Below are positions 6,827-59,020 of a stretch of 64,000 bases of DNA, piece by piece. Under the pieces are notes generated by a model. That model saw only the letters and a program-made list of their open reading frames with translations, was not told the DNA's origin and did not search any database. Numbering within the stretch: the first letter of the stretch is position 1; the number at the start of each line of letters is the position of its first letter. The stretch is from the sequence record NZ_CP033968.1. One strand, given 5' to 3'. The DNA comes from a plasmid. Position numbers and translations under genes: made by a program.

Positions 6827-7168
6827 ACGAACGCGATCGCCGGCCGGGCATTAGGAATACCATACAACTATTGCTACGTGTTATGTATCGCTATTGTGAG
6901 AAACGAGGAGCTAGTTGCAGTTCGCAAATGGCAGGAGAGCACACTGGGCACTTCTCCGAGCACTAGCCATTCGGTCAAACGTGATCATCGCGAGATTGGA
7001 TATCGGCTTGCCGAGGTTGCACTCAGCAGGACACCAAGAATGAACACCGGGAATTTCGAGAAAGAGGCGGGAGGTTTCGTGCCTCGCGTAGGGAAGCACT
7101 AGCAAGCTCGACGAGCTCAACCGCGCGCACTCTGGCGGCGGTCTTTCGCATGTATTGAGGAGGGCAGG

Positions 7169-8527
7169 TCAGGCAGCCTTCTGTTCCTCTGCCTGTCGCT
7201 TCACGTATTGGGCCAGTTCGACCTTCAGTGCCTTACGAGCCATGATTGCCGCCTCATCCGGCCTAGCCTTTACCTTCTGCCGCCGCGCAGCCATCTGGAA
7301 CGTAGTCTCCTTGTACAGTCCATCAAGGACAGCAAGTCGTTCGTCGTCCGTCATCGAGGCGAAGATAGCCAGACCTTCTTCGATATCGCGCTCAAGATTG
7401 CGCGCAAACTCGATCTCAGCGACCGGTACCATTGGCTTACTCGGGACTGCTTCGGCTGGGCTACCAAACGCCGCCTCGCGCTCCATTTCGCTAAGTGCCC
7501 AACCCTCTTTGATCGCGGTCATTAGGTAGGCACCAGGCGATTTCACCCCTCCAACTTTGACTCGGTACCTCACGAGCTCAATCGCCGCACGGATTCGCTC
7601 ATCCGTGTTCACTTCGCGATTGCTGATGATCTCATTGATCTGCCTGGTGCTCAGCCCAAAGCCCTTAACGAGAGTCTCATACAGATCCTTCAGCTCATGT
7701 GGTTGCGCAAAGTCCAGAACGAGCTTGCCCTCTGCGTTGTCCCTAAGCTTGAATCGAATCGCCGCAACGCGTCGCGAACCCTGCGCGGTCTTCGTTTCGT
7801 ACTCAACGTAGAGATCGGTCAGTTCATTGATTTGGGCAATGTTCTTATCCAGAACCAACCGCTTGAACTGCTTGTACTCGGTGAGTGATTTGACCGCGTC
7901 AGCATTGACCCACTTCCTGACCTCTTCGATCGGAAGCCAGTTCGTAGTCCCCATGAATCGAAGGGCGCCCAAACGCTCATACAGGATGTACGCGTACTGG
8001 CTGAGTGCCGCAGACATGCGCAAGGATAGATAGGTATAGCGCTTCGGATCTTTGAGTTGTCGACGGATCATCTCGTCGACCTTGAACACAACGCGCCCGC
8101 CTGCGATCCCTACAGAACCAAGAAGCGGCACTGACACCCATTGCGGGTCGCCGCCGCCCTTGCGCTCAACAGAGACTTGAACCGATGAGCTCTGGCACTC
8201 GCGCAGGGCCTTCTTGAGGTGCGCGACGTTGTTCGATGTTTCGAACTTAGCGAGCCATTTGAAGTAGCCGAGCTCGATATCGTAATGCTCAAGATCCGGG
8301 TTCTCCGACACCGTGAGCCACAACGCATTGATGGCCCGCCTTGCCACGAGGGACATAGGGGTGACGTCAATCAGAACATTGGTTTTGCGGTACCCAATGT
8401 CGCGCGTGGATTCAGTGATTGCGGTACTAGGCCCGAGCTCCTCGCGGACAGCGTTGAAGATATCGAAACCCAGCTGCTCCTGGATGTTTTTTGGGAGATT
8501 AGACATGGCAGAGTGCGCCCAATGCAC
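7169..8527 (-). CDS. repA: Plasmid replication initiator protein (RepA/TrfA-like, winged-helix)
   Basis: 452 aa, basic, between parS array and iteron/DnaA-box field. Sequence character consistent with RPA-family initiators; no closer family assignment possible without a search. Confidence 0.65.
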   Translation of the reverse strand: MHWAHSAMSNLPKNIQEQLGFDIFNAVREELGPSTAITESTRDIGYRKTNVLIDVTPMSLVARRAINALWLTVSENPDLEHYDIELGYFKWLAKFETSNNVAHLKKALRECQSSSVQVSVERKGGGDPQWVSVPLLGSVGIAGGRVVFKVDEMIRRQLKDPKRYTYLSLRMSAALSQYAYILYERLGALRFMGTTNWLPIEEVRKWVNADAVKSLTEYKQFKRLVLDKNIAQINELTDLYVEYETKTAQGSRRVAAIRFKLRDNAEGKLVLDFAQPHELKDLYETLVKGFGLSTRQINEIISNREVNTDERIRAAIELVRYRVKVGGVKSPGAYLMTAIKEGWALSEMEREAAFGSPAEAVPSKPMVPVAEIEFARNLERDIEEGLAIFASMTDDERLAVLDGLYKETTFQMAARRQKVKARPDEAAIMARKALKVELAQYVKRQAEEQKAA

Positions 8528-8559
8528 TAAGAGACTGCCGTAATATCTCCGTAATGGTG

Positions 8560-9945
8560 TAATGAGTCAAGTATACGATTGCACCTTTGCGCAACACCGT
8601 TGCCAAGAGGCACCAATCAATGACACCGTCGAACCAACTGATGCCACCATGACTGAGCGCCACTCCCCGGAAACCTAGACTGGGCGCGCCTTTCCGGGAT
8701 ATACGCACATCAAGCCAACGGTTAACACCTTCCACCAATTCATTGCACCTTGGCACCAATGGATAGCACCGTAGGAAGCCAATTTCTTACACCTTTGCGG
8801 CCCAATGCGGTACACCAATCCCCCAACAGATATCACCTTGGCACCAACAGTTAACACTTTGCTGCTCGTAAGCCATTGAATTATTTAAGCAAAACGAGAC
8901 CCGTATACGTTGGTTGGTTTACGTAAACAAAGCTGCTAGCTCTCCGCAGAAAAATGCGGAACGTCAAAACCACCGGTACTTATCCACAGCCATCGGCACT
9001 TGCCGCTTCGTCACCGCGACCGCTATCGCAGTACGGTGCAATCTGTTGGACCGCAATGAGCTCCGCCACACAGAGATGCAATCAACTCGACGCAACCCTC
9101 CCTCTCTAAACCCCATGGTGCAATCAGTTGGTCCGCAATCTTCCATATCGGTATGGGTGCAATGTATTGGCCCGCAAAGCCCCAGGGGGAAAGGTGCAAT
9201 GTATTGGCCCGCAAAATCGGCGTTCACTTGCCGCTATGGTGCAACGTATTGGTCCGCAAGAGACTGGGCACATGGTGCAGTCAATTGGTCCGCAGAGTAC
9301 CTCTCAACGACATGGTGTAGTTTATTGGTCCGCAAACGGACTCTCTACCATGGTGCAATGAATTGGCCCGCAGGGGGCTAGAACCGATAGCGCAGTTCTT
9401 TAGTCCGCAGAAACCCTAGCGCGTCATGGGCCCGCTACCCCCAGGCAATATGGTGTATCTGATTGGTCCGCAACCGCACGAGTACCGGCTATGGTGCAGT
9501 CGATTGGTCCGCAACCATGGCGAATCAGCGGCGTTAGCAGCTCTGCGCAGGCTCAAACACGCGCAAGGTGGCATCCGTTGGTCCGCAAAATGTGAGGACA
9601 AATAAGCACTCGCCTCGAAAGGTGCAATGACTTGGTCCGCAAAGATTGGCCACTGATTCCAGCATCTCTTACAGCACCTGCACTGCGCAAAGGTGCAATG
9701 GTTTGGTCCGCAATTTCTCCCAGCGGGGTTCAACCGGCAAGGTTATGACAACAATTAGCGAGATCTAGCGATAGGAAGCACTCACTAAAGCTCCGCAAAT
9801 TGCGCCACGGTCCACCAAACCGTTACACCTTGCCCGCGGGAGCGGGCTTTGCGGTCCAAAACGCATCACCCTAGGTAGTGCTCCATGGGGCACCTCCGCA
9901 AACTTTTGCGGGTCTGCGGGCCAAATCGTTACACCTTTCACCGCT
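8560..9945. repeat. oriV-like iteron field: 12 direct copies of ~22-bp GGTGCAATnnnTTGGTCCGCAA plus at least 5 inverted/degenerate copies
   Basis: Direct copies at ~9115, 9154, 9193, 9237, 9273, 9313, 9351, 9451, 9492, 9567, 9620, 9690 (first seven at ~39-40-bp spacing). Inverted copies at ~9803, 9849, 9915 and degenerate inverted copies at 8560-8870. Immediately upstream of repA. Confidence 0.6.
8980..8988 (+). promoter_or_regulatory. Consensus DnaA box TTATCCACA next to an AT-richer stretch (8870-8940, candidate DNA unwinding element)
   Basis: Exact 9-mer match to the DnaA box consensus, located between repA and the iterons. Confidence 0.4.
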
Positions 9946-10051
9946 GCCGCGAGGCGTAGACAGCCTGGAGCATCAGTACGCGGGGAGGGCGAGTTCCGGA
10001 TCAGATCTTTGCTTGCCTGTCGGCTGAATGGAGGGGCGGAACACGTTTCTC

Positions 10052-11050: not shown

Positions 11051-13648
11051 GTGGAGGAGAAGAGACCATCACAAGGTACGGGCGGCCGATCGGCTCGCCG
11101 CCTTGCCATTGCTGCAGGCGTTCTGTCGAGCCTCTTGCTTACGAGCATCTCCATCCACGAAGTGATTGACTTCAGGCGACGGGAATACGCTGAAGCACGA
11201 GAGAGCCTGGCGGTCTTCTCATCCGCACTGACTCGACAGGCGGCTGAGATCCTGAGGAGCCAGAAGACCGTTGTTCGACAGGTAGCTCGCACTTTGAATG
11301 GCGACAGCAACGCTCTCAGCATTCAAGAACGGTTTGCAATCGCAAGGGCAACAACCGAGAACACCTGCGTTGCCCGACTCTTCCTATACACCTTGACTGG
11401 TGCACTTGAGCTCGATACTTCAGGCTCTCCTGAGCCACAAGCTCCTCTAGCGCCGAGCAAAGACCTCCTGACTCAAGCAGTCAGCTATATCGTTGATGGA
11501 CCAGTTCCGGGCCTGCCGTACCAAATCTCAATCTCTGAAGGCCTACTTGGCGGCAACGGCCAATACCGTTGGCTCGCAACATCCTGGATTGACTTCGCCC
11601 CCTTCGCGCAGACAGTGGCCGCGATCACACGCGATACCGGTTACCAGGTCGCACTTGCCACTGAAGAGGGTCGCATCCTCTATCGCTTTCCAGAGTCCGC
11701 TCGCTTTGATTCGCAGGAGATTCGCCAAGGAGCGTTCGACGCATGGGGTAAAGCCGCGAGCCACGCTCCGATTCGCGAGCTTCCCGCCGGCGCAGCCGCT
11801 GAGAGCGTCATAACACGGATCGAGGGCGCACCGCTTGCCTTACAGATCGCATTGCCGACGCAGACTGTGAACACGGCCTGGCAGCGCCGCGCATCGTACC
11901 TCGCGGTACTTTCAACGGCCGGCATAGGCCTGATCTGGCTTCTCATTGCCACAATCCTCCGCCAGGTTAAGCAAACAGAACGTGTCGCCGAGTCCGCGGA
12001 ACGCGGCGAAGCAATGTTCGTCGACGTCTTGTCGCGGCTACGTGAGGCCGTCATTGCTACCGACACAAAGGGCACGATTCGCTTTGCGAACTCGAATGCC
12101 TTTATTGCTCTAGCTGCCACCTCAACCCATCAACTGATTGGCCAGCAGATTCAGACCTTGCTCCCTCCTGAGGTATGGAAGGGCTCGCCTTTAGGCGCGG
12201 GCGGAAATCCACGCCAAGAGGCATCCCACGAGTGGGCGGGCTGCTTGCCGACCCTTGCGGGCTCTTCGTTCCATGCCGAAGTCCGCATCTGTGGCAACGG
12301 CCTCCACGGAACCGATGGTCTCGTCATTACAATTCATGACGCCAGCGAGAGAAAGGCCTACGAGGCTCGAGTTGTTGAGGCGGCCACCATCGATCCGGTC
12401 ACGAACGTCTCAAACATGCACGCGTTTCGCGACAGACTCGATCGACTATTCCTGTCCGAGAGCGATCGCGACCAATTCCACGCCGTTTTGGCGGTGCAGC
12501 TCTCCGCTCCTCAAGGGGCACCGCTTGATGACTCGATTTGCGCACTGGCGGCAGATCGATTGACCACGAGCATTCGCGATTCCGACTCAGTCGCTTCGGA
12601 GGGCAGCGGTCGCTTCTTTGTACTGGCAAGAAATGTGTCCGAGCCGATTGACGTTGCGATCATTGCGCGTCGGATAGCTGCATGCTATGAAGCGCCGCTT
12701 ACGCCAGGCGGAGAGACGCTGCGGCTTCGCGCACGGACAGGCATCGCGCTGTTCCCCGTCGATGCGGAAACCAGTGACGCCTTGGTCGCTTCGGCTAAGA
12801 AGGCCGCGGCAACAGCAAACGCCGAGCATTTTGTCTATGCGAATGAAGCTTGTTCACGGCAACTCGAAAGTTTGCGCGAGCAAGCCGATGCCCTGAGAAC
12901 GTCGTTCGGCGCCGACAACTTGAAGCTGAACTACGCCCCGATGGTCTGTCTGAAGAGTAACGTCATCGTCGGCGCTATCGTAACGCCACTGGTCAGCAGC
13001 AATGGGCGGTACATCCCACTCGCTCGTCTGAGCGCCATACTTGAAGAGACGCGCATCTCTGCCCTGGCCGACGAGTGCGTGCTGAGATCGTTGCTCGCAG
13101 ATCTTCGCGCCTGCCAAGCTATTCCCGCCCCACGCTTGCTGATCGTGCCTGTCCACCGCGATAGCTTCACGAGGCCCGGATTTCTCAACACATTGCGAGA
13201 AGCGGTCGACGCTCTTCCGACGAAATGGGCGCTCGGCGTCAGCATTCTGGAACCCGTTGAATCAGAACACTGGACACAGGCCACGGTAGCGATCAGTGAT
13301 CTCGCGACGTTCGGCGTCCAGGTGTTCCTATCTGACTATGGCAACGGCTTAGCGTCATTGCCGCGCCTCATTACTTCCGGAGTACAAGGCGCAATCCTCG
13401 ACCGATCGCAAGCGCCGTTTATGGCTGGGCGGGACGATGCCTTCGCCTTCGTTACCGCCGCCACGGCCGTTGCGGCTAATCTCGGCATCAAGCTCGTGGC
13501 CACGGGCGTCAAGGACGCTGAAGTCGCTTCGATGCTAGCAAAAATGGGAGTGTCGTACGCCTGCGGTCCCCTTTATGGGACCAGCTACACGGCACCAGTC
13601 CTACCCGAACCTGCGATTCGAGAGTCACAAACGACGAATGCGCGTTAG
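11051..13648 (+). CDS. Membrane sensor protein with periplasmic domain, PAS and degenerate GGDEF-EAL domains (probably catalytically inactive c-di-GMP sensor/receptor)
   Basis: 865 aa; two TM segments; GGDEF position reads SGRFF; EAL position reads YAP, but the EAL fold signature motifs are retained (SDYGNGLASL, ILDRS). GTG start; start uncertain. Confidence 0.6.
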   Translation: MEEKRPSQGTGGRSARRLAIAAGVLSSLLLTSISIHEVIDFRRREYAEARESLAVFSSALTRQAAEILRSQKTVVRQVARTLNGDSNALSIQERFAIARATTENTCVARLFLYTLTGALELDTSGSPEPQAPLAPSKDLLTQAVSYIVDGPVPGLPYQISISEGLLGGNGQYRWLATSWIDFAPFAQTVAAITRDTGYQVALATEEGRILYRFPESARFDSQEIRQGAFDAWGKAASHAPIRELPAGAAAESVITRIEGAPLALQIALPTQTVNTAWQRRASYLAVLSTAGIGLIWLLIATILRQVKQTERVAESAERGEAMFVDVLSRLREAVIATDTKGTIRFANSNAFIALAATSTHQLIGQQIQTLLPPEVWKGSPLGAGGNPRQEASHEWAGCLPTLAGSSFHAEVRICGNGLHGTDGLVITIHDASERKAYEARVVEAATIDPVTNVSNMHAFRDRLDRLFLSESDRDQFHAVLAVQLSAPQGAPLDDSICALAADRLTTSIRDSDSVASEGSGRFFVLARNVSEPIDVAIIARRIAACYEAPLTPGGETLRLRARTGIALFPVDAETSDALVASAKKAAATANAEHFVYANEACSRQLESLREQADALRTSFGADNLKLNYAPMVCLKSNVIVGAIVTPLVSSNGRYIPLARLSAILEETRISALADECVLRSLLADLRACQAIPAPRLLIVPVHRDSFTRPGFLNTLREAVDALPTKWALGVSILEPVESEHWTQATVAISDLATFGVQVFLSDYGNGLASLPRLITSGVQGAILDRSQAPFMAGRDDAFAFVTAATAVAANLGIKLVATGVKDAEVASMLAKMGVSYACGPLYGTSYTAPVLPEPAIRESQTTNAR

Positions 13649-13701
13649 AATTCATAACACGTACTTGTAATAACGTTCGCAAACTTTCACCTCGAATCGA
13701 C

Positions 13702-47201: not shown

Positions 47202-47436
47202 GAAATTCTCACAGTGCAGAGTCGAAAAGGCCCCGCAACCGGGGCCGGCCACCGATGCGCAATCCGCTGTGCGCAATGTGTACTGCTCATTGTTCACTGC
47301 AGATACCGCACCTGTTACGCGTCCGCATTTTAGAATACATAACACGTATTGACAAGACGACTGTAGCGAACGGAGAATTGCCCCCCCGGGGTTGTTTACG
47401 CAATGTGATAAGCAACCCCCAAAGGACGCTTAATAC

Positions 47437-47961: not shown

Positions 47962-48019
47962 GCTAAGCGGGATCAATGCCGACCAAGGCCCTGGTGCAGA
48001 GACTGTGCCGGGGCTTTTT

Positions 48020-49500: not shown

Positions 49501-49578
49501 GTAACACGTATGCATAATTTGCTTGATTGATCTAAGTACTGTGCGTATGATGGGTATAAATGGTTGGCCACATATGAA
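49343..49578 (+). repeat. Four copies of GTAAATGnTTGGCC-like motif flanking the TAACACGTATGCAT site upstream of gene 49589
   Basis: Copies at ~49343, 49387, 49433, 49564. Confidence 0.45.
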
Positions 49579-49588
49579 GGGGTATGAG

Positions 49589-49858
49589 ATGCGTACGAAG
49601 GTGAAGGTTGGTCTGATGATTGGAGGTGTCGTGCTGGTAGCAGCGGCGATCGTGCTGGCGCCCGTGCTGCGCGACCTGCCTTGGCTGAAGTGGACCCTGT
49701 ACGTGTGCGCTGCACTGATGCTGTCCCCGCTGTTCATGGGCGGTCTCGTGGACGTGCCCGCCACCACCCCGGAAGATCCGACCTTCGAAAAGAATCGCAT
49801 CGGCGATGCAAGGCAGGACGTCTGGGGGTTCAACGGCCAAGACAGCAACAACGACTAA
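49589..49858 (+). CDS. small membrane protein (2 TM)
   Basis: SD AAGGGGTATGAG ATG; 89 aa. Confidence 0.4.
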   Translation: MRTKVKVGLMIGGVVLVAAAIVLAPVLRDLPWLKWTLYVCAALMLSPLFMGGLVDVPATTPEDPTFEKNRIGDARQDVWGFNGQDSNND

Positions 49859-49893
49859 GCGCGGCGAAACTGGAAAGGATGAAAGGGGTCGAG

Positions 49894-51687
49894 ATGAGCA
49901 AGGCTACGCACGAACAACTTACCGCGATCAACAGCGCCGTCCGTCGCCTGGTGGTCCAGGCCTGCCCGGGTGCCGGCAAGACGTTCACCCTGAGGGAGTA
50001 CGCCCTGGTGCGTCCCTCGGAGCGCATCCTGTACCTCACCTACACGAAGTCTCTCCAGACTGAAGCCGAGGGCAAGTTCCCCCAGAACGTCGAATGCCGC
50101 ACCACTCACTCCCTTGCGTGGTCGTTCGGCCGTCGCTTCAAGGACGCCGGTAAGCTGGGCGACCTGCGCCCGAGCGACTTCGCCCGCGCCTTCGGCATCG
50201 AGATCGGCTTTGCCAGTATCCTGGTGACGACTGTCACGAGCTTTCTGTTCTCCGCGGATACCGACTTCGAGCCGCACCATGTGCCGGACACGATCGCCGA
50301 GGCAGATGTCGCTGAGACCCTGAAGTGGGGCCGGCTCGCTTGGGAGGCCATGCAGGATCTCGGCCGCAAGAACGTTCCCATGCCCCATGACGGCTATCTC
50401 AAGCTGTTCCAGCTTTCGAAGCCGGACCTGTCGCGTCGCTACGATCGCATCCTGTTCGACGAAGGCCAGGACGCCAACCCGGTCACGACCTCGATCGTTC
50501 TTGCCCAGAATTGCCCTGTGGTGATCGTCGGCGACCGGTATCAGGCGATCTTTGCCTTCCGGGGTGCCGTCAATGCCATGGACATGATCCAACCGGATGA
50601 AACGGTCTACCTCACCCAGAGCCATCGCTTCGGCCCTGGCATTGCCCGGCTGGCCACGATGCTCCTCTCCGCGTTCCGCGGCGAAGAGCGACCTGTGTAC
50701 AGTGCCTTCCCGGATCGGCCGACTGGCTACACGGTCGACGTTTCCAAGCCGTACGCGGTCATCGGCCGCACGAACGCCAAGCTGTTCGACAAGGCTGTCG
50801 CCATGCTGGGCAACAAGCGTCTGCACTTTGTCGGTGGGCTCAGTAATTACCCATTTGACAAGTTGGTGGACGTTTGGAACCTGATGAGCGGCCAGCCGGC
50901 CGCCGTCAAGGACCAGTTGCTCAAGACCTTTGGTTCGCTGGAGAAGCTCGAGGAGTACGCGACGGGCGTTGACGACAAGGAGATTCTCTCCCTGATCGGT
51001 GTGGTGAAGGAGTACCGCAGCGCGATCCCGTCGCTGGTCGAGAGGATCAAGGCGGAAGCAGTGGAACAAGCAGAGCACGCTGACGTTCTGCTCTCGACGG
51101 CCCATCGTGCGAAGGGTCTCGAATTCAGCCAGGTACTGCTGCTCGACGACTTTGAAGACTTCGTCACGGCCAATGGCGAGCTGCTGACTCTGGATACGCC
51201 CGAACTGGTCCAGGAACTGCACCTGCTGTTCGTGGCACTCACCCGAGCCGAGGACGTTATCGAGCTCAACGCCCAGATGCAGGACATCATCGCGATCCTA
51301 GGGGATCGCGTGCCTGAAGCTCAGCCAACCCCGGGCGAGAGGAGCACCGAACAAGTGGGGGAGCAGCTTGGCCAGATTCCGGGTTTTGATTACGTGCCGG
51401 TTGTGTATACGTGTGATGTAGCGGAAAATGTCACACGTGAACAAAAGGCACCGGTGGTCGCGCTGGCGCAAGTGCCGGTTGGTGCTGGCACTGACATTGA
51501 GAAATCGGTGGAGCTGGCGATCCTCCGGCAAGGCCTCCTCCACGTTCCGCGGCTGGCGCAAGAGGTTGGCGTGAGCCGCGAGGTGATGGCGGATGTCATC
51601 GTCGAGATGATCCGGAAGGGCCTGCTGGCCGAGTCGCTCTTCCTGGGTAGCCCGGAAGTAGTCAGCCGGCTGCGGGTGGCTGCGTGA
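49894..51687 (+). CDS. UvrD/REP superfamily I DNA helicase
   Basis: Walker A CPGAGKTFT, DEGQD, motif VI STAHRAKGLEFSQVLL; start at ATG 49894 (SD AAAGGGGTCGAG). Confidence 0.8.
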   Translation: MSKATHEQLTAINSAVRRLVVQACPGAGKTFTLREYALVRPSERILYLTYTKSLQTEAEGKFPQNVECRTTHSLAWSFGRRFKDAGKLGDLRPSDFARAFGIEIGFASILVTTVTSFLFSADTDFEPHHVPDTIAEADVAETLKWGRLAWEAMQDLGRKNVPMPHDGYLKLFQLSKPDLSRRYDRILFDEGQDANPVTTSIVLAQNCPVVIVGDRYQAIFAFRGAVNAMDMIQPDETVYLTQSHRFGPGIARLATMLLSAFRGEERPVYSAFPDRPTGYTVDVSKPYAVIGRTNAKLFDKAVAMLGNKRLHFVGGLSNYPFDKLVDVWNLMSGQPAAVKDQLLKTFGSLEKLEEYATGVDDKEILSLIGVVKEYRSAIPSLVERIKAEAVEQAEHADVLLSTAHRAKGLEFSQVLLLDDFEDFVTANGELLTLDTPELVQELHLLFVALTRAEDVIELNAQMQDIIAILGDRVPEAQPTPGERSTEQVGEQLGQIPGFDYVPVVYTCDVAENVTREQKAPVVALAQVPVGAGTDIEKSVELAILRQGLLHVPRLAQEVGVSREVMADVIVEMIRKGLLAESLFLGSPEVVSRLRVAA

Positions 51688-51808
51688 TGGTTTCCCAGGA
51701 GGGATGGCTGGTTGCGGCACCCGCGTGGCGTCGCCATAGCCGTCGGTGGCTCCTGAAGGTGGAACATCTCATGTCGTTGGATTGGTCAAGTTTCGGAGAA
51801 TTGGGACG

Positions 51809-52213
51809 ATGAAGAACAAGGTCCGAGCACTCACCGAGCAGCAGGCGAAAGAAGTCTGGGCGATTCTCGTGCGCTGCTGCGGCGCACGAGATGTCGTCAC
51901 GACGGCCGCAATCTTTGCGCGGCTCATGTCCGGTTGCACAGTCCCCATCCGATGGACGTTCGATAGCGCCAATGGCAGCGCGGTGTTCTGCGCTCCGGAG
52001 ATGCGTGTCATCCCACGGGTGTCCATTCCGACCGGCACCTGGGTGGCGATGCTCCTGCGGGCGAACGAAGAGCTCTCTTTCATCGTGCCCGCCGGCGCCG
52101 AGATCGACTGCCGCTCGCTGGCGGAGCTCGCTTCGTGTGACCGGACCCAGGCCGCGGCGTCACTGGACGCACAGGGGGCAGGGGCTCAAGCCACTGCGCG
52201 CGTCGCAATCTGA
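51809..52213 (+). CDS. hypothetical protein
   Basis: SD GGAGAATTGGGACG ATG; 134 aa. Confidence 0.4.
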   Translation: MKNKVRALTEQQAKEVWAILVRCCGARDVVTTAAIFARLMSGCTVPIRWTFDSANGSAVFCAPEMRVIPRVSIPTGTWVAMLLRANEELSFIVPAGAEIDCRSLAELASCDRTQAAASLDAQGAGAQATARVAI

Positions 52214-52215
52214 TT

Positions 52216-52230
52216 TTGACGTTTGGTCAA
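52216..52230. promoter_or_regulatory. Inverted repeat TTGAC-GTTTG-GTCAA upstream of gene 52244; a second copy (TCGACGTTTGGTCAA) at ~52791-52805 and a partial (TTGGTCAAG) at ~51785
   Basis: Seen directly ~20-30 nt upstream of three consecutive starts. Confidence 0.4.
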
Positions 52231-52243
52231 GAAACCAAGAATC

Positions 52244-52774
52244 ATGAGCTCCATTGAACTTCATACTCGCTGCGGCCTAAAGTGCGTTCGTCTCGGCGGC
52301 GGCTGGTACTTCAATCCGAAGGTCAGCACGCAGGGCTTCTGCTACGTCGGCGATTCGACGGCACCCGATACCGAGATCGGCCCCGGCAGTCGCTACTACG
52401 GTCCCGACGTATGGGAGTCCAAAGACGGACCCATGTACGGGCGTGAACTACTCAAGGTTCGCCCGGTGCACTGGGATGCATGGTTTGCCGGTCACCTCAA
52501 CGAAGCATATGGCGGCGATCGCCAGTACGACCGCATGAAGGCGTGGCCTGCGAAACTCGAGCTCACCGATGCCGGGCGCGACAAGGGGCTCCACGAACTG
52601 GATGGCCTGGTGGTGGGCAGCGAGGAAGAGTTCGTTGCTCGCCTGAAGTTCTTCGCCCAGGTGCCTGCCGTGGCAGTGCGCAAATCGGGTGTCACCGAAC
52701 AGAAGGGCGCTTTCCCGCGACCGAATCCAGTCGTGGCAGTCACGTCCGCTGCGTGGCTCGGCGCCCAGCTCTGA
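52244..52774 (+). CDS. hypothetical protein
   Basis: 176 aa. Confidence 0.45.
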   Translation: MSSIELHTRCGLKCVRLGGGWYFNPKVSTQGFCYVGDSTAPDTEIGPGSRYYGPDVWESKDGPMYGRELLKVRPVHWDAWFAGHLNEAYGGDRQYDRMKAWPAKLELTDAGRDKGLHELDGLVVGSEEEFVARLKFFAQVPAVAVRKSGVTEQKGAFPRPNPVVAVTSAAWLGAQL

Positions 52775-52831
52775 CGATGGCACATCTGGATTCGACGTTT
52801 GGTCAAGTCGGAACGGGTTTGGGGGGATTCG

Positions 52832-53395
52832 ATGGAAAGGCTTGATCACGAGCCATCGAGCCGCACGGCGCGGAAGGCGCAACGGCTGCTGTCATTGGGT
52901 TTGCCAAGCGACGAGACAGCAGGGCGCCGAGGTGAATCCCGGAGCGCGGCCTGGCCTGTCGAGCCGGACCCCGCCGCGATCGACCTCGCAAAGGGGATTC
53001 TCGGTGCCCGATTCGAGGCGGACCACAAAGACCTGAATGCCATGCAGCGGGCCGCGCGAGATGCAGGGCTCGCGTTCGAGCTCACGCTCTTCGGCCCGGA
53101 TGCAGCGGATGCGAGGTGCGTTGTCACGGAGGTGGCGGCATGGAACCTGCGCATAGCGCCGGCGGCGCGAATCCATCGACGGATTGGCGCCTTGTCGCGG
53201 AAGGTGAGCAGATCGGTCGCCGCATCGGTTGCTCGTGTAGACCCGACCACCCTGGGCGGCCGTGGGGCAGCCGGCCGTCAGCGCGATCACAGCCGCGCTG
53301 CAGAAGGCCGCGCCATCCTGCGCGGCCAGATCGCCCGGCTTGAGGCCGAACTCACTCGGCGAGCAGCTGAGTCGTCAGCGGACGACCAGCGATGA
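52832..53395 (+). CDS. hypothetical protein
   Basis: 187 aa from internal ATG. Confidence 0.4.
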   Translation: MERLDHEPSSRTARKAQRLLSLGLPSDETAGRRGESRSAAWPVEPDPAAIDLAKGILGARFEADHKDLNAMQRAARDAGLAFELTLFGPDAADARCVVTEVAAWNLRIAPAARIHRRIGALSRKVSRSVAASVARVDPTTLGGRGAAGRQRDHSRAAEGRAILRGQIARLEAELTRRAAESSADDQR

Positions 53396-53436
53396 TCGCC
53401 CGTATCCAATTCTGCGAGATCAACGGAGAACGAAGC

Positions 53437-54012
53437 ATGCCGCGCACCACCACCGAACGCCCACGCATCGACGCGCTGTACTTCGGCGAACGCCTGGAGC
53501 GCGTGCTGTCCGGCATCCACCGTTACACGCCGGCGGAGCTAGCCCGCGAGTTGACCCGCATGGCCATGGTCGCCGCTCCGGACATTGCCGTGAGGGAAAT
53601 CGAAGAGCGCCGCGCGTCGATCGGTAGCGCCGCAGCGGACGCTCCGCCGACAGAAGCTTGCAGCGAGGACGGCGTGGCCACGACCGAGGCCGCGTGTGCC
53701 GATCCGAACGGCACCGCGCTGCGCAAAGCTGTTCTTGCGGGTTTGGTCAAGCTGGGCCACGAAATCGACGATGACCGCGTCACCATCTACCGGGCAAAGG
53801 AGGATTCGGGCAACGCGCTTCACCAGGTAACCGAGGCGATCGTGAGTGCGGTGAGCGCCGTTCTCGCTCGAACGGATCTGGTATGCCGGCCGGCGTCCTA
53901 CGCAAGCCTGTTTGAAATGGACTTCGGCAATGCGGAGATCGTGGCGCTCTCCCGAGACGGGGAAAAGCAGGGCGCCGTACAGGCCGCGGCAGCCGTGGAG
54001 GCCGGACGATGA
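53437..54012 (+). CDS. hypothetical protein
   Basis: SD ACGGAGAACGAAGC ATG; 191 aa; stop overlaps next start. Confidence 0.45.
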   Translation: MPRTTTERPRIDALYFGERLERVLSGIHRYTPAELARELTRMAMVAAPDIAVREIEERRASIGSAAADAPPTEACSEDGVATTEAACADPNGTALRKAVLAGLVKLGHEIDDDRVTIYRAKEDSGNALHQVTEAIVSAVSAVLARTDLVCRPASYASLFEMDFGNAEIVALSRDGEKQGAVQAAAAVEAGR

Positions 54013-54803
54013 ACCACAATCTTTCGCCGAAGCCAGTGCCGGCGATTGCCGTTCTGAGATGGGCACGACAGGCCGGGGACCTGATTCGTCGCGGCTTCAT
54101 CGCCTGGGTGGCGCTGATGGCTGTGTTCTGCATCGCCGCCAGCCTGGTCCGGACATCCGTCGTGCTGGCCACCGTGTTGTCTTCAATGGCGTTCCTCTTT
54201 GGCATTCGCGTCGCTGCACTTGTTGACGACACATCGGAACGCACGATCGGTGAGATGGTGGGCGTGGTAATGGGCGGGTTTGGCGTGACACTGCGCTACG
54301 CGGGTGTTGTCGTACTCACGGTGGCCGTACTGAACGCGCTGCCGGCGCTGCTGCTCGGCAACATCACGGCCGCCTTGCGTCCATTCCACAACCCGGGCCT
54401 GCAGTCGATCTGGAGCGCCACCGACACGTTCACCGCGATCAACGAAATGTTCGTTCTGCCGATCGCAGGAATGCTGATGTTCCTGTGCTGCTTCATCATG
54501 CCGCTCGTGGCGTCGACCTTCCAGTACCACCTGATCAGCTTCTTTGGCGTCAACTGGCGTCAGGCGTACCGAACCGGTCGAGCGGGGCTGCCGCGCATGA
54601 ACATCGGCGCCATCTTTGGCTTCTACCTGGTTGCCTTTGGACTTCTCGCCCTGACGGTCGCGTTCGCGCCGATCGCGGCGCCGGTAGTCTTCGCTTTCCT
54701 TTCCGCCTTCTCGTACGTCGCGTTCCGAGAGATCTATCTCGGAATCGGCACGAATCGGAAGGTCGCCCTGGCCGAGTTGCGTGCCGCGGCTTCCTTTACC
54801 TAA
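54009..54803 (+). CDS. integral membrane protein (6-7 TM)
   Basis: 264 aa, multiple long hydrophobic helices. Confidence 0.55.
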   Translation: MNHNLSPKPVPAIAVLRWARQAGDLIRRGFIAWVALMAVFCIAASLVRTSVVLATVLSSMAFLFGIRVAALVDDTSERTIGEMVGVVMGGFGVTLRYAGVVVLTVAVLNALPALLLGNITAALRPFHNPGLQSIWSATDTFTAINEMFVLPIAGMLMFLCCFIMPLVASTFQYHLISFFGVNWRQAYRTGRAGLPRMNIGAIFGFYLVAFGLLALTVAFAPIAAPVVFAFLSAFSYVAFREIYLGIGTNRKVALAELRAAASFT

Positions 54804-54819
54804 CAAACAGGAGATCCTC

Positions 54820-55047
54820 ATGCATGCAGGACAAGTCAGTATGTCCAACGGAGTCACCATCGACGTGGTGCAACAGGAAACCGGTGCCGTTTTGCTCGAG
54901 TTCGGACGAGCAGGGAACTACACGGGTTTGCTGATGGCGGGCAATACCCGTGACGAGGTCCTCGCCAAGCTGGGTGAGCTCACTGCCTTGGTCGCCGCTC
55001 TGCCGCAGACGGCGCAGGCGGAAGAGCCCGCTCTGGCCGGTGCCTGA
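54820..55047 (+). CDS. small hypothetical protein
   Basis: SD CAGGAGATCCTC ATG; 75 aa. Confidence 0.4.
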   Translation: MHAGQVSMSNGVTIDVVQQETGAVLLEFGRAGNYTGLLMAGNTRDEVLAKLGELTALVAALPQTAQAEEPALAGA

Positions 55048-55100
55048 CGGCGGCCGGTCAACCACCAGAATCCAGAAGAGACCGCGCAAGGGAGCGGGCC

Positions 55101-55469
55101 ATGGCCAAAGACGATTTCATCCGCATCAAGTACACCCGCGAAGTCGACGGGCGCAAGAAGCGCAGCTCGGTTTCCGTGGACCCAGACCTCTTCGAGATCT
55201 TTGCGAAGATCCGCGGCACTGTTCCGGCAGCTCGCGCAGTGCTGCGTGAATGGGCGGTTGCGGTCGACGCGGACCGCCAGTGGCAGGATGGCCTGGGTGT
55301 CGATGGCGGCATCGGCCTTTCTCGCATGGTGCAGAGGCGGATGTTCTCCGAGATCAACACGTTCGTCGACAAGGGCATGGTGGTGATCCAGAAGGAGGAT
55401 GCGGATCTGCATCCGAACGCCCCGCGTCCGACAAGGAGCGCGGCCCGCCGGCGGAGTGTCTCAGCCTGA
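55101..55469 (+). CDS. hypothetical protein (basic C-terminal tail)
   Basis: SD AAGGGAGCGGGCC ATG; 122 aa. Confidence 0.45.
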   Translation: MAKDDFIRIKYTREVDGRKKRSSVSVDPDLFEIFAKIRGTVPAARAVLREWAVAVDADRQWQDGLGVDGGIGLSRMVQRRMFSEINTFVDKGMVVIQKEDADLHPNAPRPTRSAARRRSVSA

Positions 55470-55549
55470 GTGAAGCTTATCGGCTTGACAACATTTACCA
55501 CTCACGTATTATACATACGTGTTATTAATCTATTTTCAGGATTGCGGCG

Positions 55550-55777
55550 ATGAGTGCAGAGTCGGGACGTTCGAAGTTCCCCCAGTTCGTTACCAAGGAA
55601 GCTGAGCTTCGCCACAGGGAAGAAGCCTGCATCGCCAGGATCGAGAGCCTGCAACGCAAGCTTGCTGAAGGCAGTGTCATTCCGGTACCGGAGCTGCGCT
55701 CGGATCTGGCTACTGCGAAGCGGGAGTTGGCCGAGGTACGTGCGAGCATGGCGGAAGAGGGCATTGCGGCCCTGTAA
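55550..55777 (+). CDS. small coiled-coil protein
   Basis: 75 aa. Confidence 0.35.
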   Translation: MSAESGRSKFPQFVTKEAELRHREEACIARIESLQRKLAEGSVIPVPELRSDLATAKRELAEVRASMAEEGIAAL

Positions 55778-55932
55778 TGCGAGACCTCGAGAGCAATCAA
55801 CCATGAAAAAGTACGCCATGGAGTTCTATCGCCGAAACTCGGTTGTGCTGCTCGCGTTGGCGGTAACCGTGGCAAGCGTTGTATTGACTATCGGTGCTGC
55901 GCATCTGGTCCACACATTCATCCTGACGTGAC

Positions 55933-56331
55933 ATGAAACCGCAAGAACTGGCAAAAAATCCGGCAGGACAAGACCAAATTGCACGAGCGCGGGAGCTTTG
56001 CGATGGATCTCTAGCATTGACCGCACGGTTGTCTGCGCTACTGAGGACGAAACCGACACGAGGGCAGATGCTCGACTTTCTCGAAGAGTTGAACAAGTCG
56101 GCAAAACAAACGGCGTACGAGGAAGGCATCAAGCGCATCTGTGAGGCGGTCGGCATCCTGGAGCCGTCTCCACAAGACAGGCTCATGGCTATGCAAGTAG
56201 GCATGCTTCGCGAGCAGAACGAGTTACTGCATCACATTGCAACCGGCGTTGGCGCGATTCCGAAAGACAAGCCACTTAGCTTCACCGGTGCGGTAGGCGC
56301 GGCGATTGTTGGCACCCTGCTCACACGCTGA
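55933..56331 (+). CDS. hypothetical protein
   Basis: 132 aa. Confidence 0.45.
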   Translation: MKPQELAKNPAGQDQIARARELCDGSLALTARLSALLRTKPTRGQMLDFLEELNKSAKQTAYEEGIKRICEAVGILEPSPQDRLMAMQVGMLREQNELLHHIATGVGAIPKDKPLSFTGAVGAAIVGTLLTR

Positions 56332-56516
56332 GCCGTGCTCCGTCTGGAATTCTCCTCTCCTTGATAGTGCTCGGCAGCCGCTGAAATGCATGCTGCTAAA
56401 CAAGGGAAAAGACGGAAGAGTAGGTCGCTGCAAGGTTGCGGTGCGTGGCCCGCGTGAGGCAAACCAACAACGACTGTAGTCCAAGTACACACAATCGACA
56501 CGTAAGGAATCGCGCA

Positions 56517-56723
56517 ATGGCAACGCACATCGACAACGACACTGCTGACCTCATCAATACTGTCGTGGACTTCGCGGCACAGTCGCGCAAGCAGTATGCG
56601 GACAGCAAGGAATGGACGACGACCGATTCGCATGGATGTGAAACCATCCGTGTTCCTGTGGCCCTGCTGAACCGCATTCGCGACCTCGGCATCGCCATCC
56701 AAAGCGCAACCTCTCACGCCTAA
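56517..56723 (+). CDS. small hypothetical protein
   Basis: SD AAGGAATCGCGCA ATG; 68 aa. Confidence 0.35.
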   Translation: MATHIDNDTADLINTVVDFAAQSRKQYADSKEWTTTDSHGCETIRVPVALLNRIRDLGIAIQSATSHA

Positions 56724-56741
56724 CCATCTGAGTGGCAGAAG

Positions 56742-57173
56742 ATGACCATCGAGATCAACATTTTTGGCGACCCGCCGACGCAGTCGGAGATTGACGGGAA
56801 CCTCCGTGCAGACAGGAGGAGCCTTACGACCGGAGAGAAGATAGCACTTGGCCCAGGCGTACTAGGCCTTGAGGTTCTGGTCGGTGCGGCCGTCGACGCA
56901 TTCAATGGTGAGTCCAACCGCATCACCGGGAAGAGCTCTCCGTGGGAAGCCGCTCCGGGCGCCATTGACTGGGACTGGTCCAGATCGATCTTTGCGGAAA
57001 GCTACGCAAACAAAGTGCGTGCCATGAAGCGCGATCTGGTGCGATGTGAAGTGACAGCATTGACGCGCCAGTTCAACCTGGAGCAAAAGGCGATCTCTGC
57101 TGTGAAGGAAGCCGGGGCGGTCGCGGGAAGCATTGCTGATACGATTCTATCCAGCGTCGTCGGCAAGAAGTGA
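56742..57173 (+). CDS. hypothetical protein
   Basis: 143 aa. Confidence 0.45.
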   Translation: MTIEINIFGDPPTQSEIDGNLRADRRSLTTGEKIALGPGVLGLEVLVGAAVDAFNGESNRITGKSSPWEAAPGAIDWDWSRSIFAESYANKVRAMKRDLVRCEVTALTRQFNLEQKAISAVKEAGAVAGSIADTILSSVVGKK

Positions 57174-57223
57174 TCACCAGGGGCGGCGCTTAGGCTGAGG
57201 GTCTCACCGGAGGGTGCTCAAGC

Positions 57224-57520
57224 ATGGTCAATATCCTGGTTGCCGCTCTGGCAGCCTTTGGCGTTTCGGGCTGCATCGAACTTCCTGATTTCGGGGCGGA
57301 ATCCGCCGCACGCGAGGTGGCACAGGCCTATATCAGCGAGGTGACCGGCACCGACCCGGTCGCAATCAAGCAAAGTGTCCGGATCGCCGGTAGCAAGGCC
57401 TACGTTAGCGCCGAGCACGGCAACGGATTCAAAAGATGCGAGTTGGTTCTCAGACGGACCATCCAAGACAACATGACGGGCTGGCGGGTCGAGCATGCGA
57501 CTTGCGGCTACGCAACCTGA
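57224..57520 (+). CDS. small putative lipoprotein (lipobox VSGC)
   Basis: MVNILVAALAAFGVSGC...; SD GGAGGGTGCTCAAGC ATG. Confidence 0.4.
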   Translation: MVNILVAALAAFGVSGCIELPDFGAESAAREVAQAYISEVTGTDPVAIKQSVRIAGSKAYVSAEHGNGFKRCELVLRRTIQDNMTGWRVEHATCGYAT

Positions 57521-57831
57521 AATGCCAAAGAGAGAAATAGACATTCAAGACGTGCTCAGGGAGCAATTTGAGTCCGGCGAAGCGGTCCTGGTACTGCAGG
57601 CGGAAATGCCTGATGCGGCCCTCTTGTTGGCGATCAGAACAGCCCTTTCGTATGGCGCCGCATTCAAGGTGGTGCCGGGGCAGCAGCTGCGACAGTTGAA
57701 CTGAGCGCCGGTGATCGCCGGGGCTCGCATACCAGGAGAGCAGTGAGAATAATGGAAATGGCACAACGCGAAGCGGCACCTCACCGTCCGATTAGTTTCG
57801 AGCTCGCTCAGCAACCCATGAAGCCGGCATC

Positions 57832-58140
57832 GTGATGACCGAGATCGAAAAGCGTGCGTGCGAGGCCTTGCACCAGGCATTCTGCCGGCTCCGCCACTTC
57901 TCCACGCGGGACCTGAACGAGTTGGGCCGAGAGCACTTGTTCATGGTCGCCGACGCGGCGCACAACATTCCGGATGCGTTGGCGGGGAACGCGTGCCATC
58001 GAGCGAATCTGGAGCGAGACGTTTTGGAGCTCGAGGCCCTGCTTGTGGAACCATACGAGATCGCTATCGACAGATACCTTGGTCGAGAGGAAACACGGGT
58101 GTCGTTCTTCGAGAGCCTTCGGTCCGCCATTGGATTCTGA
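57832..58140 (+). CDS. hypothetical protein
   Basis: 102 aa. Confidence 0.4.
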   Translation: MMTEIEKRACEALHQAFCRLRHFSTRDLNELGREHLFMVADAAHNIPDALAGNACHRANLERDVLELEALLVEPYEIAIDRYLGREETRVSFFESLRSAIGF

Positions 58141-58198
58141 CTAGCCGCACAGTCCCGATAAACTACCTAAGTCCGCTAACTGATTCCCCTTTCAACGT

Positions 58199-59020
58199 AT
58201 GCATACGTGTAATGTAGCGAATAGTGGTCAACAAGCGGCGCCGGTGCAGGGTCCAGTGGATTTGGATGCGACCAGGCGCGATGCCGCCAATCTTCCGCCC
58301 GAATGGCAAAGCGGGGTGATTGCCCTGGCGGAAGAACTGGCTGGGGCACGAGCCTTGATCGAGAACTCGAGCAAGGATGCGGTTGACGCTGCCGCGTATC
58401 GTCGAATCAATACCCCGGAAGTGGCGCACTTCGTGCACGCTTCGTACAACGAGGCGATGCACCAGCGATTGCGCTGGGGGCCTGCGCACGACATGGCCAA
58501 GTCCAATGAGGACTGGTATGCGCTCCTGGGTTACCTCGCCGGCAAGGCGCAACAGCCTGACATCCCGCTCGATAAGCGCCTCCACCATGTCATCGCGACG
58601 TCCGCGGCCTGCTTTAACTGGCACGGGGTCCTGACGGGCAGTTGGTCGGACCGTGAAGCCGCCGATGCCCTCGAGCGAGCGCGGACCCAACCCCGAGGCC
58701 CCATCCAACACTCCCTGAAATGTGACAGTGAAGTCTTCAACGCCGTTGCGGACGGGCGGAAGACGCATGAGATCCGGTTCGACGACCGTGATTACAGGCT
58801 AGGTGACGTACTGCTCCTCAAGGAGACTGTCTACTCCGCTGCGGAAATGCAGACCGGAGCACCGGTGCTCTTCACAGGGCAGGAGATCTGGCGAGTCGTC
58901 TCGCACGTGCTGACGGGATACGGCCTTTTCCCGGGTTGGGTTTGCCTCTCCCTTGAGTCCCCGAACACAAAGCGGGCCGCGCTGGGCCCGGACACCGCAG
59001 CGAATTCACCGGAGGCTTGA
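58199..59020 (+). CDS. Two-domain protein with C-terminal ASCH-like DUF3850 domain; N-terminal ~180-aa helical domain of unknown function
   Basis: HSLKCDSEVFNAVADGRKTHEIRFDDRDYRLGDVLLLKE matches the DUF3850 pattern (H.LK..P.yF.A...G.KtfE.R.NDR....GD.L.L.E). Confidence 0.5.
   Translation: MHTCNVANSGQQAAPVQGPVDLDATRRDAANLPPEWQSGVIALAEELAGARALIENSSKDAVDAAAYRRINTPEVAHFVHASYNEAMHQRLRWGPAHDMAKSNEDWYALLGYLAGKAQQPDIPLDKRLHHVIATSAACFNWHGVLTGSWSDREAADALERARTQPRGPIQHSLKCDSEVFNAVADGRKTHEIRFDDRDYRLGDVLLLKETVYSAAEMQTGAPVLFTGQEIWRVVSHVLTGYGLFPGWVCLSLESPNTKRAALGPDTAANSPEA

Follow-up and report, generated by a model that had tools for sequence, protein, structure and literature searches.

A Candidate Operator Shared by Backbone Promoters of pMOL30/pBVIE01-Type Megaplasmids

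A short motif with the core TAACACGTA recurs in the 64,000-nucleotide stretch of plasmid DNA analyzed here (sequence record NZ_CP033968.1; hereafter, the window). It is enriched over chance, concentrated in intergenic and promoter DNA, conserved across genera, and found on or beside the core elements of mapped promoters. We consider it likely that a sequence-specific DNA-binding protein of the plasmid backbone uses the motif as its operator, and that the genes adjoining it make up a candidate regulon. The window (59% GC) derives from a Cupriavidus megaplasmid of the pMOL30/pBVIE01 family: plasmid p1 of Cupriavidus metallidurans BS1 matches positions 29000-50000 with 100% identity and a C. campinensis plasmid with 99.7%, pMOL30 of strain CH34 shares about 22% of this part, and a phage collection gave no match to the window. 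Gene calls are those of the RefSeq annotation of BS1 p1, transferred to the window and snapped to clean reading frames; the PLSDB annotation behind them is incomplete, and 21.7% of the window is intergenic under the transferred annotation.

Occurrence, conservation, and shape of the motif

CACGTAT occurs 13 times in the window versus 3.0 copies expected, a count reached in none of 100 shuffles. Allowing at most one mismatch, AACACGTATG was found 11 times versus 1.65 expected, and the nine-nucleotide core TAACACGTA is present in eight exact copies versus 0.06 expected. These counts, all above chance expectation, bear out the recurrent motif noticed in an earlier annotation made from the sequence alone (the first-pass annotation). 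The exact copies, at 6875 (-), 13655 (+), 17566 (-), 30900 (+), 36682 (+), 47340 (+), 49502 (+), and 55516 (-), are all intergenic, which has a chance of about 5e-6 under random placement. An unbiased k-mer count of intergenic versus coding DNA recovered the same word, along with parS-like repeats and iterons, two repeat families that are unrelated to it. A position weight matrix (PWM) of 23 columns, trained solely on sites of other plasmids and used with a cutoff of at least 12 bits and an expectation from Markov simulations, gave 13 matches in the window versus 0.5 expected, a test that is only partly independent because the training sites came from a window-seeded matrix. Ten of these matches are intergenic, one lies across the start of a PAPS-reductase-family gene, one at an internal promoter in uvrD, and one, weak, in coding sequence. 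All ten loci of the first-pass annotation are real and lie at, or within 1 to 3 nucleotides of, where it had placed them, but it had omitted a copy at 51400-51422 (-) in the 3' end of uvrD and a weak one at 20620. Its statement that every copy is intergenic and upstream of a gene start agrees with the intergenic position of the eight exact copies, but fails for that at 6875, which lies 279 nucleotides past the rep stop codon with no annotated gene downstream.

In Burkholderia vietnamiensis G4, plasmid pBVIE01 shows synteny with the window at the protein level; DNA-level similarity is limited to a single non-coding region. The motif is present in pBVIE01 at orthologous promoters, namely, in the divergent region of parM, at the helicase operon, and at the operon encoding the 94- and 381-amino-acid (aa) proteins discussed below. 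It is also found at orthologous promoters in Pseudomonas putida pKF715B, Methylibium RPME01 (69% GC), and a Stenotrophomonas plasmid, and likewise in eleven contigs recovered by a ParM profile (Cupriavidus, Piscinibacter, and seven Pseudomonas species). In at least 12 plasmids of Cupriavidus, Burkholderia, Piscinibacter/Methylibium, and Pseudomonas, parM is preceded by the invariant block GATACATAACACGTATTGACAAT, though the ParM proteins are just 46 to 74% identical and the flanking DNA is unalignable; by this comparison, the block reads as a clear phylogenetic footprint. The site of the helicase operon is kept in pBVIE01, Cupriavidus TMH.W2, and Pseudomonas plasmids.

Beyond the window, the next 50 kb of BS1 p1 (NZ_CP037902.1, 162900-212850) contain five more strong sites, all intergenic, at positions 7020, 9586, 23088, 43007, and 47975 of that segment. 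Two of these five adjoin methyltransferase genes, one for a DNA methyltransferase and one for an N-6 DNA methylase, which suggests that anti-restriction functions belong to the same regulon. Fifty kilobases of accessory catabolic DNA of the same plasmid contain no site. The regulon is a property of the conserved backbone: the first-pass annotation had extended it across the whole element, which is right for the backbone, comprising the window and at least 50 kb beyond, but not for the accessory catabolic DNA tested. No motif enrichment was detected on the Aromatoleum EbN1 plasmid around a distant homolog of the 381-aa protein.

The core is identical in plasmids of very different hosts, ranging from 55% to 69% GC. 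This could be explained without a conserved plasmid regulator if the motif were the site of a host transcription factor common to beta- and gammaproteobacteria and exploited by the plasmids. Judging from the plasmid sequences covered, we regard this as very unlikely, considering the restriction of the sites to the conserved backbone, their absence from the accessory DNA, and the presence in this plasmid family of conserved DNA-binding proteins with invariant recognition elements. To our knowledge, none of the widespread regulators Fur, Zur, LexA, IHF, Fnr/Crp, NrdR, and MetJ has a consensus that fits the motif.

A sequence logo built from 43 unique sites of nine plasmids reads gATaCATAACACGTAt.tATAAt, with nine core positions nearly invariant. 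On the right side of the site, strong conservation is confined to ATA, fixed 3 nucleotides past the core, and no conserved element suggestive of a bipartite (-35/-10) structure was found within 45 nucleotides on either side of the 23-bp site. Fully symmetric copies occur at window position 58195 (ACGTA-TGCA-TACGT), at pBVIE01 33703 (CGCGTAT-TG-ATACGCG), and at Methylibium 21069 (TAACACGTATGCATACG). From these copies we deduce that the ideal site would be a 22-bp palindrome with the halves TAACACGTATG and CATACGTGTTA, most copies having a vestigial right half. The full site thus appears to be a lopsided 22-bp dyad, with a strong left half, containing the core TAACACGTA, and a right half reduced mostly to ATA. 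The "-10-like" tail TATG(T/C)AT, which the first-pass annotation had ascribed to every copy, is present in only about half of them and is explained by the degenerate right half of the dyad. The AT-rich flanks act as -10 hexamers for some promoters, but this is a by-product of the sequence of the site and not its definition.

Position of the motif relative to transcription starts

Transcription start sites (TSSs) of strain CH34, pMOL30 included, were taken from Grosse et al. 2022 (PMC9045368, supplementary file 1); they represent one strain, one condition, and about 27 kb of pMOL30. The relevant genes are not mentioned in the files of the 2020 tagRNA-seq paper. Five pMOL30 TSSs were transferable to window coordinates because the 91-nucleotide regions match exactly, and all five, at 30835 (-), 49558 (+), 51437 (+), 55521 (+), and 13659 (+), belong to ordinary RpoD promoters. 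A sixth, pMOL30 23533 (+), outside the window, starts at A5 of TAACATGTA, with the motif at -4 to +6, downstream of TTGACA-N17-CAAGAT. The association with transcription starts proposed in the first-pass annotation is thereby upheld: the motif overlaps or adjoins core elements of all six RpoD-type promoters. It does so in either orientation and at varying positions, from -24 to -31, in the spacer, from -18 to +2, from -4 to +6 (twice), and from -47 to -56. Such variable placement in both orientations on RpoD promoters argues for an operator and not for a promoter element. Of the two roles left open in the first-pass annotation, "operator or promoter element," the operator-type site is thus favored by cross-genus conservation and overlap with mapped RpoD promoters, whereas a promoter or -10 element does not fit TSS positions that vary and are absent where motif-directed promoters would predict them. 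In a consensus scan, the motif-bearing sites ranked as the best sigma-70-like promoters of the window (12/12 to 10/12), those without a mapped TSS being consensus matches only.

The operon of the 94-aa and 381-aa genes is served by the RpoD promoter TTGACA-N16-TATAAT (30842-30869, minus strand), a 12/12 match with a strong RpoD score at TSS 30835 (TSS_13858). This promoter bears the sole perfectly palindromic core, the 8-bp palindrome ACACGTGT (30859-30866), which overlaps the -35 element and the spacer and lies at -24 to -31. Promoter and palindrome are kept in pBVIE01, and a variant, TCACACGTATGTGT, is found in the spacer of the Methylibium counterpart. A second operator, GATACATAACACGTACGAATGAC (30894-30916, plus strand; core 30900-30908), lies 42 bp upstream of the palindrome and just outside a terminator at 30893-30874, and probably is a cooperative upstream site for the same promoter; pBVIE01 and pKF715B have variants (TAACGCGTAT) in its place. 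The terminator-like element itself (30874-30893, minus strand) consists of the hairpin CCAACCATCTGCCTGGTTGG followed by TTTATT and, located between the operators at 30900 and 30859, parts two 94-aa transcription units.

At the promoter of the second EAL-domain gene, the operator AATTCATAACACGTACTTGTAAT (13649-13671, plus strand; core 13655-13663) is preceded by the -10 element TAGAAT (13646-13651), and the mapped TSS, 13659, is A5 of the core, so that the operator covers -4 to +6 (TSS_9976). Upstream of the helicase operon, the operator CATGCGTAACACGTATGCATAAT (49496-49518, plus strand; core 49502-49510) lies at -47 to -56 of the promoter TTGATT-N17-TATGAT (49523-49551) with TSS 49558 (TSS_16390). 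The operator GCTACATCACACGTATACACAAC in the 3' end of uvrD (51400-51422, minus strand) fills the spacer of the internal promoter TTGTGT-N17-GAAAAT, whose mapped TSS at 51437 (+) serves the 122-aa gene 55101-55469 and the genes preceding it (TSS_18269). The region 55485-55530 contains the plus-strand RpoD promoter TTGACA-N16-TATTAT (hexamers 55485-55512; 11/12), which serves a 75-aa gene at 55550-55777 from TSS 55521. Here, the best-scoring operator of all, GATTAATAACACGTATGTATAAT (minus strand; core 55516-55524; PWM score 35 bits), and an inverted partner, CACGTAT (55503-55509), form a pair covering -18 to +2 (TSS_19137); no minus-strand TSS is reported for this region in the pMOL30 data.

The remaining copies lie at predicted promoters or apart from any. 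The divergent promoter region of parM and the gene for an Arg-rich protein (47327-47378, both strands) contains P-parM, TTGTCA-N17-TAAAAT (47355-47327, minus strand; 10/12), with the operator ATACATAACACGTAT (core 47340-47348) filling its spacer, and the promoter-like sequence TTGACA-N18-GAGAAT (47349-47378, plus strand; 10/12); a -10-like TAGAAT lies 3 nucleotides upstream of the core. For the second 94-aa gene (30981-31265), the promoter-like TTGACC-N18-TATAAT (31339-31368, minus strand; 11/12) has the operator variant TGTCACGTATC, with a PWM score of 19 to 20 bits, filling the spacer beside the -10 element; no TSS was called at its pMOL30 counterpart. The operator TCCTAGTAACACGTATGTATATT (36676-36698, plus strand; core 36682-36690), with the orthologs TAACGCGTATGTATATT in pBVIE01 and TAACATGTAACTATAAT in Pseudomonas plasmids, lies 13 nucleotides upstream of the start codon of a lipoprotein-like gene (35994-36668, minus strand) and also overlaps a plus-strand promoter-like sequence, GTGACC-N18-TATATT. 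The operator TTGGAATAACACGTATTGATAAT (17558-17580, minus strand; core 17566-17574) adjoins the -35 element of TTGATA-N18-TATAGT (17565-17536; 10/12), which reads into a 362-aa gene (16409-17497), and has orthologous sites in Pseudomonas pKF715B (locus L005, 25647) and the Stenotrophomonas plasmid (L022, 18852). The most symmetric copy, TTACACGTATGCATACGT (58195-58218, minus strand; dyad at 58195-58208), precedes the DUF3850/ASCH gene at 58256. If built like the 51400 module with its mapped TSS at 51437, this module may comprise the spacer ATACGTGTAATGTAGCG followed by the -10-like AATAGT (58220-58225). The copy GATACATAACACGTAGCAATAGT (6867-6889, minus strand; core 6875-6883) lies between parS-like repeats and the 3' end of rep, with no TSS mapped nearby; it is also present in pMOL30 at 3184-3206, and the 3' untranslated region of rep is reported to extend through it. 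The weak variant GATTCATAACATGGACATGTCCG (20620-20642, plus strand; 12.6 bits), across the start codon of the PAPS-reductase-family gene, is a doubtful member of the set.

The modules at 51400 and 58195 show extended similarity (CTACAT(C/T)ACACGTAT ... ATGTAGCG), as duplicates would, and the best-conserved copy adjoins parM. Both observations would fit copies left over from the duplication of a single promoter cassette, or a site for recombination or a centromere-like function, e.g., for a ParR-like protein encoded at 45590-46180, without a role in transcription. We consider this highly improbable, since only the 15- to 23-bp site is kept across genera while the surrounding promoter sequence diverges, and since its position relative to -35 and -10 elements differs among promoters. 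Moreover, parM has a single copy and no array, and plasmid-specific repeats between P-parM and the parM start fit parC better. These repeats (47202-47320) are TGCGCAAT (47256, 47271) and ATTGCGCA in the window and pBVIE01, and of GCAGTAC and TGCACA types in Pseudomonas; they likely are a parC-type centromere for the ParR-like protein, distinct from the operator.

Candidate regulators and proposed control

The operators would occur on the RpoD (sigma-70) promoters that drive at least 12 transcription units within the window and at least five outside it, and we propose that the bound protein mainly occludes RNA polymerase at these promoters. The motif would thereby place backbone genes that handle DNA, segregate the plasmid, and probably establish it in a new host under shared, probably autoregulated, negative control. 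Among the genes so controlled would be the ParM operon and its nuclease genes, the operons of the UvrD-like helicase and of ASCH/DUF3850, a gene for an EAL protein, and genes for DNA methyltransferases. The regulon could fire together when the repressor is absent, for example, right after transfer into a new cell.

The regulator we put forward, tentatively, as the most probable one is a 381-aa protein encoded at 29340-30485 (minus strand). Its unusual architecture comprises an N-terminal domain resembling region 2 of extracytoplasmic function (ECF) sigma factors (residues ~55 to 150), a disordered linker of ~55 residues, and two Xre-type helix-turn-helix (HTH) domains. The AlphaFold (AF2) model (pLDDT 73) shows two folded parts with the disordered linker between them, and the best Foldseek match is an RpoE chain. 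NCBIfam ECF matches at residues 81-152 are several and consistent but far below threshold. Both C-terminal HTHs classify as Xre/HTH_3-type (Pfam HTH_3, 23.1 bits versus a cutoff of 23), and in an alignment of 31 homologs both recognition helices are invariant. Homologs of 40 to 84% identity are present in 34 plasmids; the family resides on beta- and gammaproteobacterial megaplasmids and is nearly always annotated as hypothetical. A full-length homolog of 25% identity on the Aromatoleum EbN1 plasmid is annotated as sigma-70 family and has a weak Sigma70_r2 match. Searches of Pfam and NCBIfam gave no Sigma70_r4 match or other sign of region 4, and no sigma hidden Markov model (HMM) reached its cutoff. 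Of the label "sigma-70-like" given to this protein in the first-pass annotation, the ECF region-2-like fold stands, but there is no recognizable region 4 and the HTHs are of the Xre type. The Arg-rich protein (47437-47961), which had been named as a second possible binder, models as a coiled coil without a DNA-binding fold.

Two non-identical HTH domains per chain would suit an asymmetric half-site of 9 to 11 bp. Xre/Cro repressors and the controller (C) proteins of restriction-modification systems differ from the 381-aa protein, which has two tandem non-identical HTHs, a sigma2-like domain, and a 55-residue disordered linker; the conserved half-site of 9 to 11 bp is also more than one HTH reads. 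From ECF (group 4) sigma factors, it differs in the lack of a detectable region 4, and the motif is not bipartite and has no fixed distance to mapped TSSs. No sigma factor is listed on pMOL30 in the CH34 genome paper, which calls many of the backbone genes enigmatic (PMC2864759). The 381-aa gene is strongly expressed in CH34 (294 NPKM). The co-transcribed gene for a 94-aa protein (30512-30796, minus strand) has a paralog at 30981-31265 (minus strand). No Pfam or NCBIfam match was found for the 94-aa protein, which could be a partner or antagonist of the regulator. All relatives keep both paralogs together with the neighboring sigma2/HTH gene, and the co-transcribed one is reminiscent of sigma/anti-sigma gene pairs.

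The sigma-like features of the 381-aa protein bear on a different reading of the motif, as the upstream half of a -35-less composite promoter TAACACGTA-N2-TATAAT. A plasmid sigma-like protein would read this promoter, its HTHs binding the motif as sigma region 3 binds an extended -10 element and its sigma2-like domain melting the hexamer. In addition to the subthreshold ECF matches and the Aromatoleum EbN1 homolog, a -10-like hexamer at a constant spacing of 2 nucleotides past the core in many sites is consistent with this, as is the coverage-derived 5' untranslated region of Rmet_6049, which begins at pMOL30 16353, about 10 nucleotides past the motif. However, motif-directed starts predicted on pMOL30 (~3177-, 9995+, 13946+, 14355-, 16357+, 19117-, and 23553+) found no counterpart, no TSS being reported at any of 6 to 7 sites despite good expression of the 381-aa protein. 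The reported TSSs use canonical -35/-10 pairs, with variable placement and strand relative to the motif, at least four copies are antisense to the flanking genes, and the constant ATA is accounted for by the dyad. Together with the undetectable sigma region 4 and sigma HMM scores below cutoff, this makes the composite promoter decidedly unlikely. Slightly less unlikely, though still a long shot, is that the 381-aa protein represents a new type of transcription factor, a sigma region 2 fused to two Xre HTHs, that docks on TAACACGTA and engages the RNA polymerase core. It would do so either as a minimal plasmid sigma factor for -35-less TAACACGTA-N2-TATAAT promoters, e.g., after conjugative entry or removal of the 94-aa partner, or as a sigma-mimicking repressor competing with RpoD.

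The motif may also be an operator that is bound by another conserved backbone protein, a possibility to which we give less weight than to the 381-aa protein but more than to any other. The alternative candidate is a 122-aa protein (55101-55469, plus strand) with a ribbon-helix-helix (RHH)-like N terminus, KKRTSVSVDPDLFEIFAKIRG, whose gene lies between two operators. It shows the RHH pattern of beta strand, helix, G-x-S/T turn, and helix, and its strand, KKRTS(V/I)S(V/I)DPDL, is invariant across beta- and gammaproteobacterial plasmids. Motif and protein are found together in 29 plasmids of the family. The mapped promoter of its gene has an operator in the spacer, and the strongest operator lies right past the stop codon. 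The RHH repressors MetJ and Arc offer a comparison: MetJ has a similar KKxT strand and reads an ACGT-centered 8-bp box, the met box AGACGTCT, versus ACACGTAT here. Further likenesses are the 8-bp palindrome ACACGTGT at 30859 and the subsites 10 bp apart in symmetric copies; tandem 8-bp arrays, however, are not found here. RHH membership is unsupported in all tests run: Pfam, NCBIfam, and a PDB profile search did not support the fold, hhalign against MetJ gave a probability of 0.15%, and remote homologs from a search of 1.8 billion proteins are without a Pfam domain. A Stenotrophomonas plasmid without the 122-aa gene keeps five motif copies, but the absence looks like a recent deletion, so that presence or absence of the gene does not discriminate between the candidates. 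A further candidate is a 221-aa protein (17945-18610) with Xre-like segments and a homolog annotated as XRE family in CP031732.

For 29340-30485 and 55101-55469 alike, the mapped promoter that serves the gene bears an operator. Covariation does not separate the candidates either, as motif, HTH helices, and RHH-like strand are all conserved in Methylibium with its 69% GC.

Several observations weigh against an operator for a plasmid-encoded repressor, and against the 381-aa protein in particular. The core is strongly asymmetric, having A where symmetry demands G in 43 of 43 sites, which is not explained by a simple homodimeric repressor alone. The site at -47 to -56 of the helicase promoter, together with the copies at 6875 and 30900, which lack a recognizable promoter, misfits simple occlusion; these may be cooperative, looping, or activation sites, and that at the helicase promoter could equally activate. 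Motif-bearing promoters are active in CH34 (TSS read scores 29 to 574), and any repression is therefore partial. The PWM statistics are partly circular, and two conserved backbone proteins, the RHH-like 122-aa and the 221-aa protein, rival the 381-aa protein as the regulator. Enrichment, placement, conservation, and promoter overlap are observations; from them we infer that a protein binds, in which direction it regulates, which protein it is, and when it acts.

The plasmid backbone and its proposed control

The window contains about 75 backbone genes, mostly annotated as hypothetical. The replication and partition region encodes ParA (3684-4808), ParB (5132-5914), and Rep (7169-8506, minus strand). 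Immediately 3' of parB, at 5927-6830, the palindromic sequence TTTCACCGTGAAAA occurs eight times in both orientations and probably serves ParAB as its parS centromere array. The 1.9-kb gap upstream of rep contains TTGCGGACCAA in eight direct copies (9128-9713; also 8741 and 10066), each followed by 5 nucleotides and TGCACC(A/T) and interleaved with GGTGCAATG; these probably are the Rep iterons of the replication origin. The other backbone genes include two EAL-domain genes, a 5'-3' exonuclease gene, a PAPS-reductase-family gene, a methyltransferase gene, and a YqaJ-type exonuclease gene, as well as the ParM operon with VRR-NUC and NUC nucleases, the UvrD-like helicase operon, and the DUF3850/ASCH gene. 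DNA-handling genes are abundant in the operator-controlled region (16409-35188 and 43351-59020), as is typical for plasmid establishment or anti-defense regions; the list comprises the 5'-3' exonuclease, the PAPS-reductase-family protein, an S-adenosylmethionine (SAM) methyltransferase, the YqaJ exonuclease, the VRR-NUC/NUC nucleases, the UvrD-like helicase, and ASCH/DUF3850.

Compared to BS1 p1, the window has an IS66-family element in a different place, at 1-1979, adjoining a truncated SRAP gene, and its YqaJ-type exonuclease gene (33270-34298) is intact, whereas that of BS1 p1 is broken by a 1.3-kb insertion. The region 47962-49588 consists of 1.6 kb of unannotated DNA without a convincing open reading frame, its long frames being low-complexity and P/R- or G/W-rich. 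It shows patchy DNA similarity of 72 to 85% to pBVIE01 and Cupriavidus TMH.W2, and its pKF715B counterpart is unannotated too.

Near the operator at 36676, the DNA separating the genes 35994-36668 and 37618-37887 holds a non-coding element of about 600 nucleotides (36785-37400), conserved and structured, that RefSeq leaves unannotated. Its DNA is 79 to 82% identical to Burkholderia and Cupriavidus plasmids and 66 to 75% identical to Pseudomonas plasmids, the proteins of the latter having only about 45% identity; it is absent from pMOL30. Its indels are not multiples of three, and the consensus fold has about 138 pairs, 30 of them with compensatory double changes, and 5% non-canonical cells. 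A conserved hairpin after an A-run on the plus strand resembles a minus-strand intrinsic terminator. Rfam gave no match for 36650-37650 at E values up to 1, nor for the whole window at gathering thresholds. The element may be a new plasmid non-coding RNA or single-strand DNA element.

Known plasmid circuits offer two parallels to the control proposed here. In the kor regulon of the IncP-1 plasmids RK2/RP4, with operators for KorA, KorB, KorC, and TrbA, one short operator is likewise found on many backbone promoters of maintenance and establishment genes, at variable positions relative to -35 and -10 elements, including tens of base pairs upstream. Operators are confined to the backbone in both cases, and the kor regulators are autoregulated. 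Plasmid family and operator sequence are unrelated, however, and the operator described here is strongly lopsided and not a clean palindrome. Neither KorA nor KorB resembles the candidate regulator, nothing implicates a ParB-type protein, the ParB sites here being another repeat, and repression here is a proposal drawn from the arrangement of the sites. In the networks of IncW R388 and IncN pKM101, the repressors ArdK, KorA, and StbA silence leading-region and establishment genes, such as those for anti-restriction and DNA metabolism, via repeated operators, so that expression can surge after transfer. In sequence, these systems are unrelated to ours; the likeness lies in the operator logic, with leading-region status and transfer-dependent expression being suppositions in our case. 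A search of 8 million papers for the motif sequence returned only unrelated primers and the like, and no description of the motif or of a regulator for this plasmid family was found. Thus, the motif most likely belongs to a known kind of plasmid control circuit that apparently has not yet been described for the pMOL30/pBVIE01 family.

The cargo of megaplasmids of the pMOL30/pBVIE01/pKF715B type includes metal-resistance and catabolic genes and, in Pseudomonas, genes of clinical relevance. These plasmids share a backbone of about 60 kb, most of which is annotated as hypothetical and for which no regulatory circuit has been reported. A single conserved operator would link at least 17 backbone promoters, of genes for actin-type segregation, nucleases, a helicase, methyltransferases, and cyclic di-GMP turnover. 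This provides a list of putatively co-regulated genes, a defined DNA probe for the regulator, and the testable idea that such plasmids may limit their cost and stage the expression of their backbone genes upon entry into a new host.

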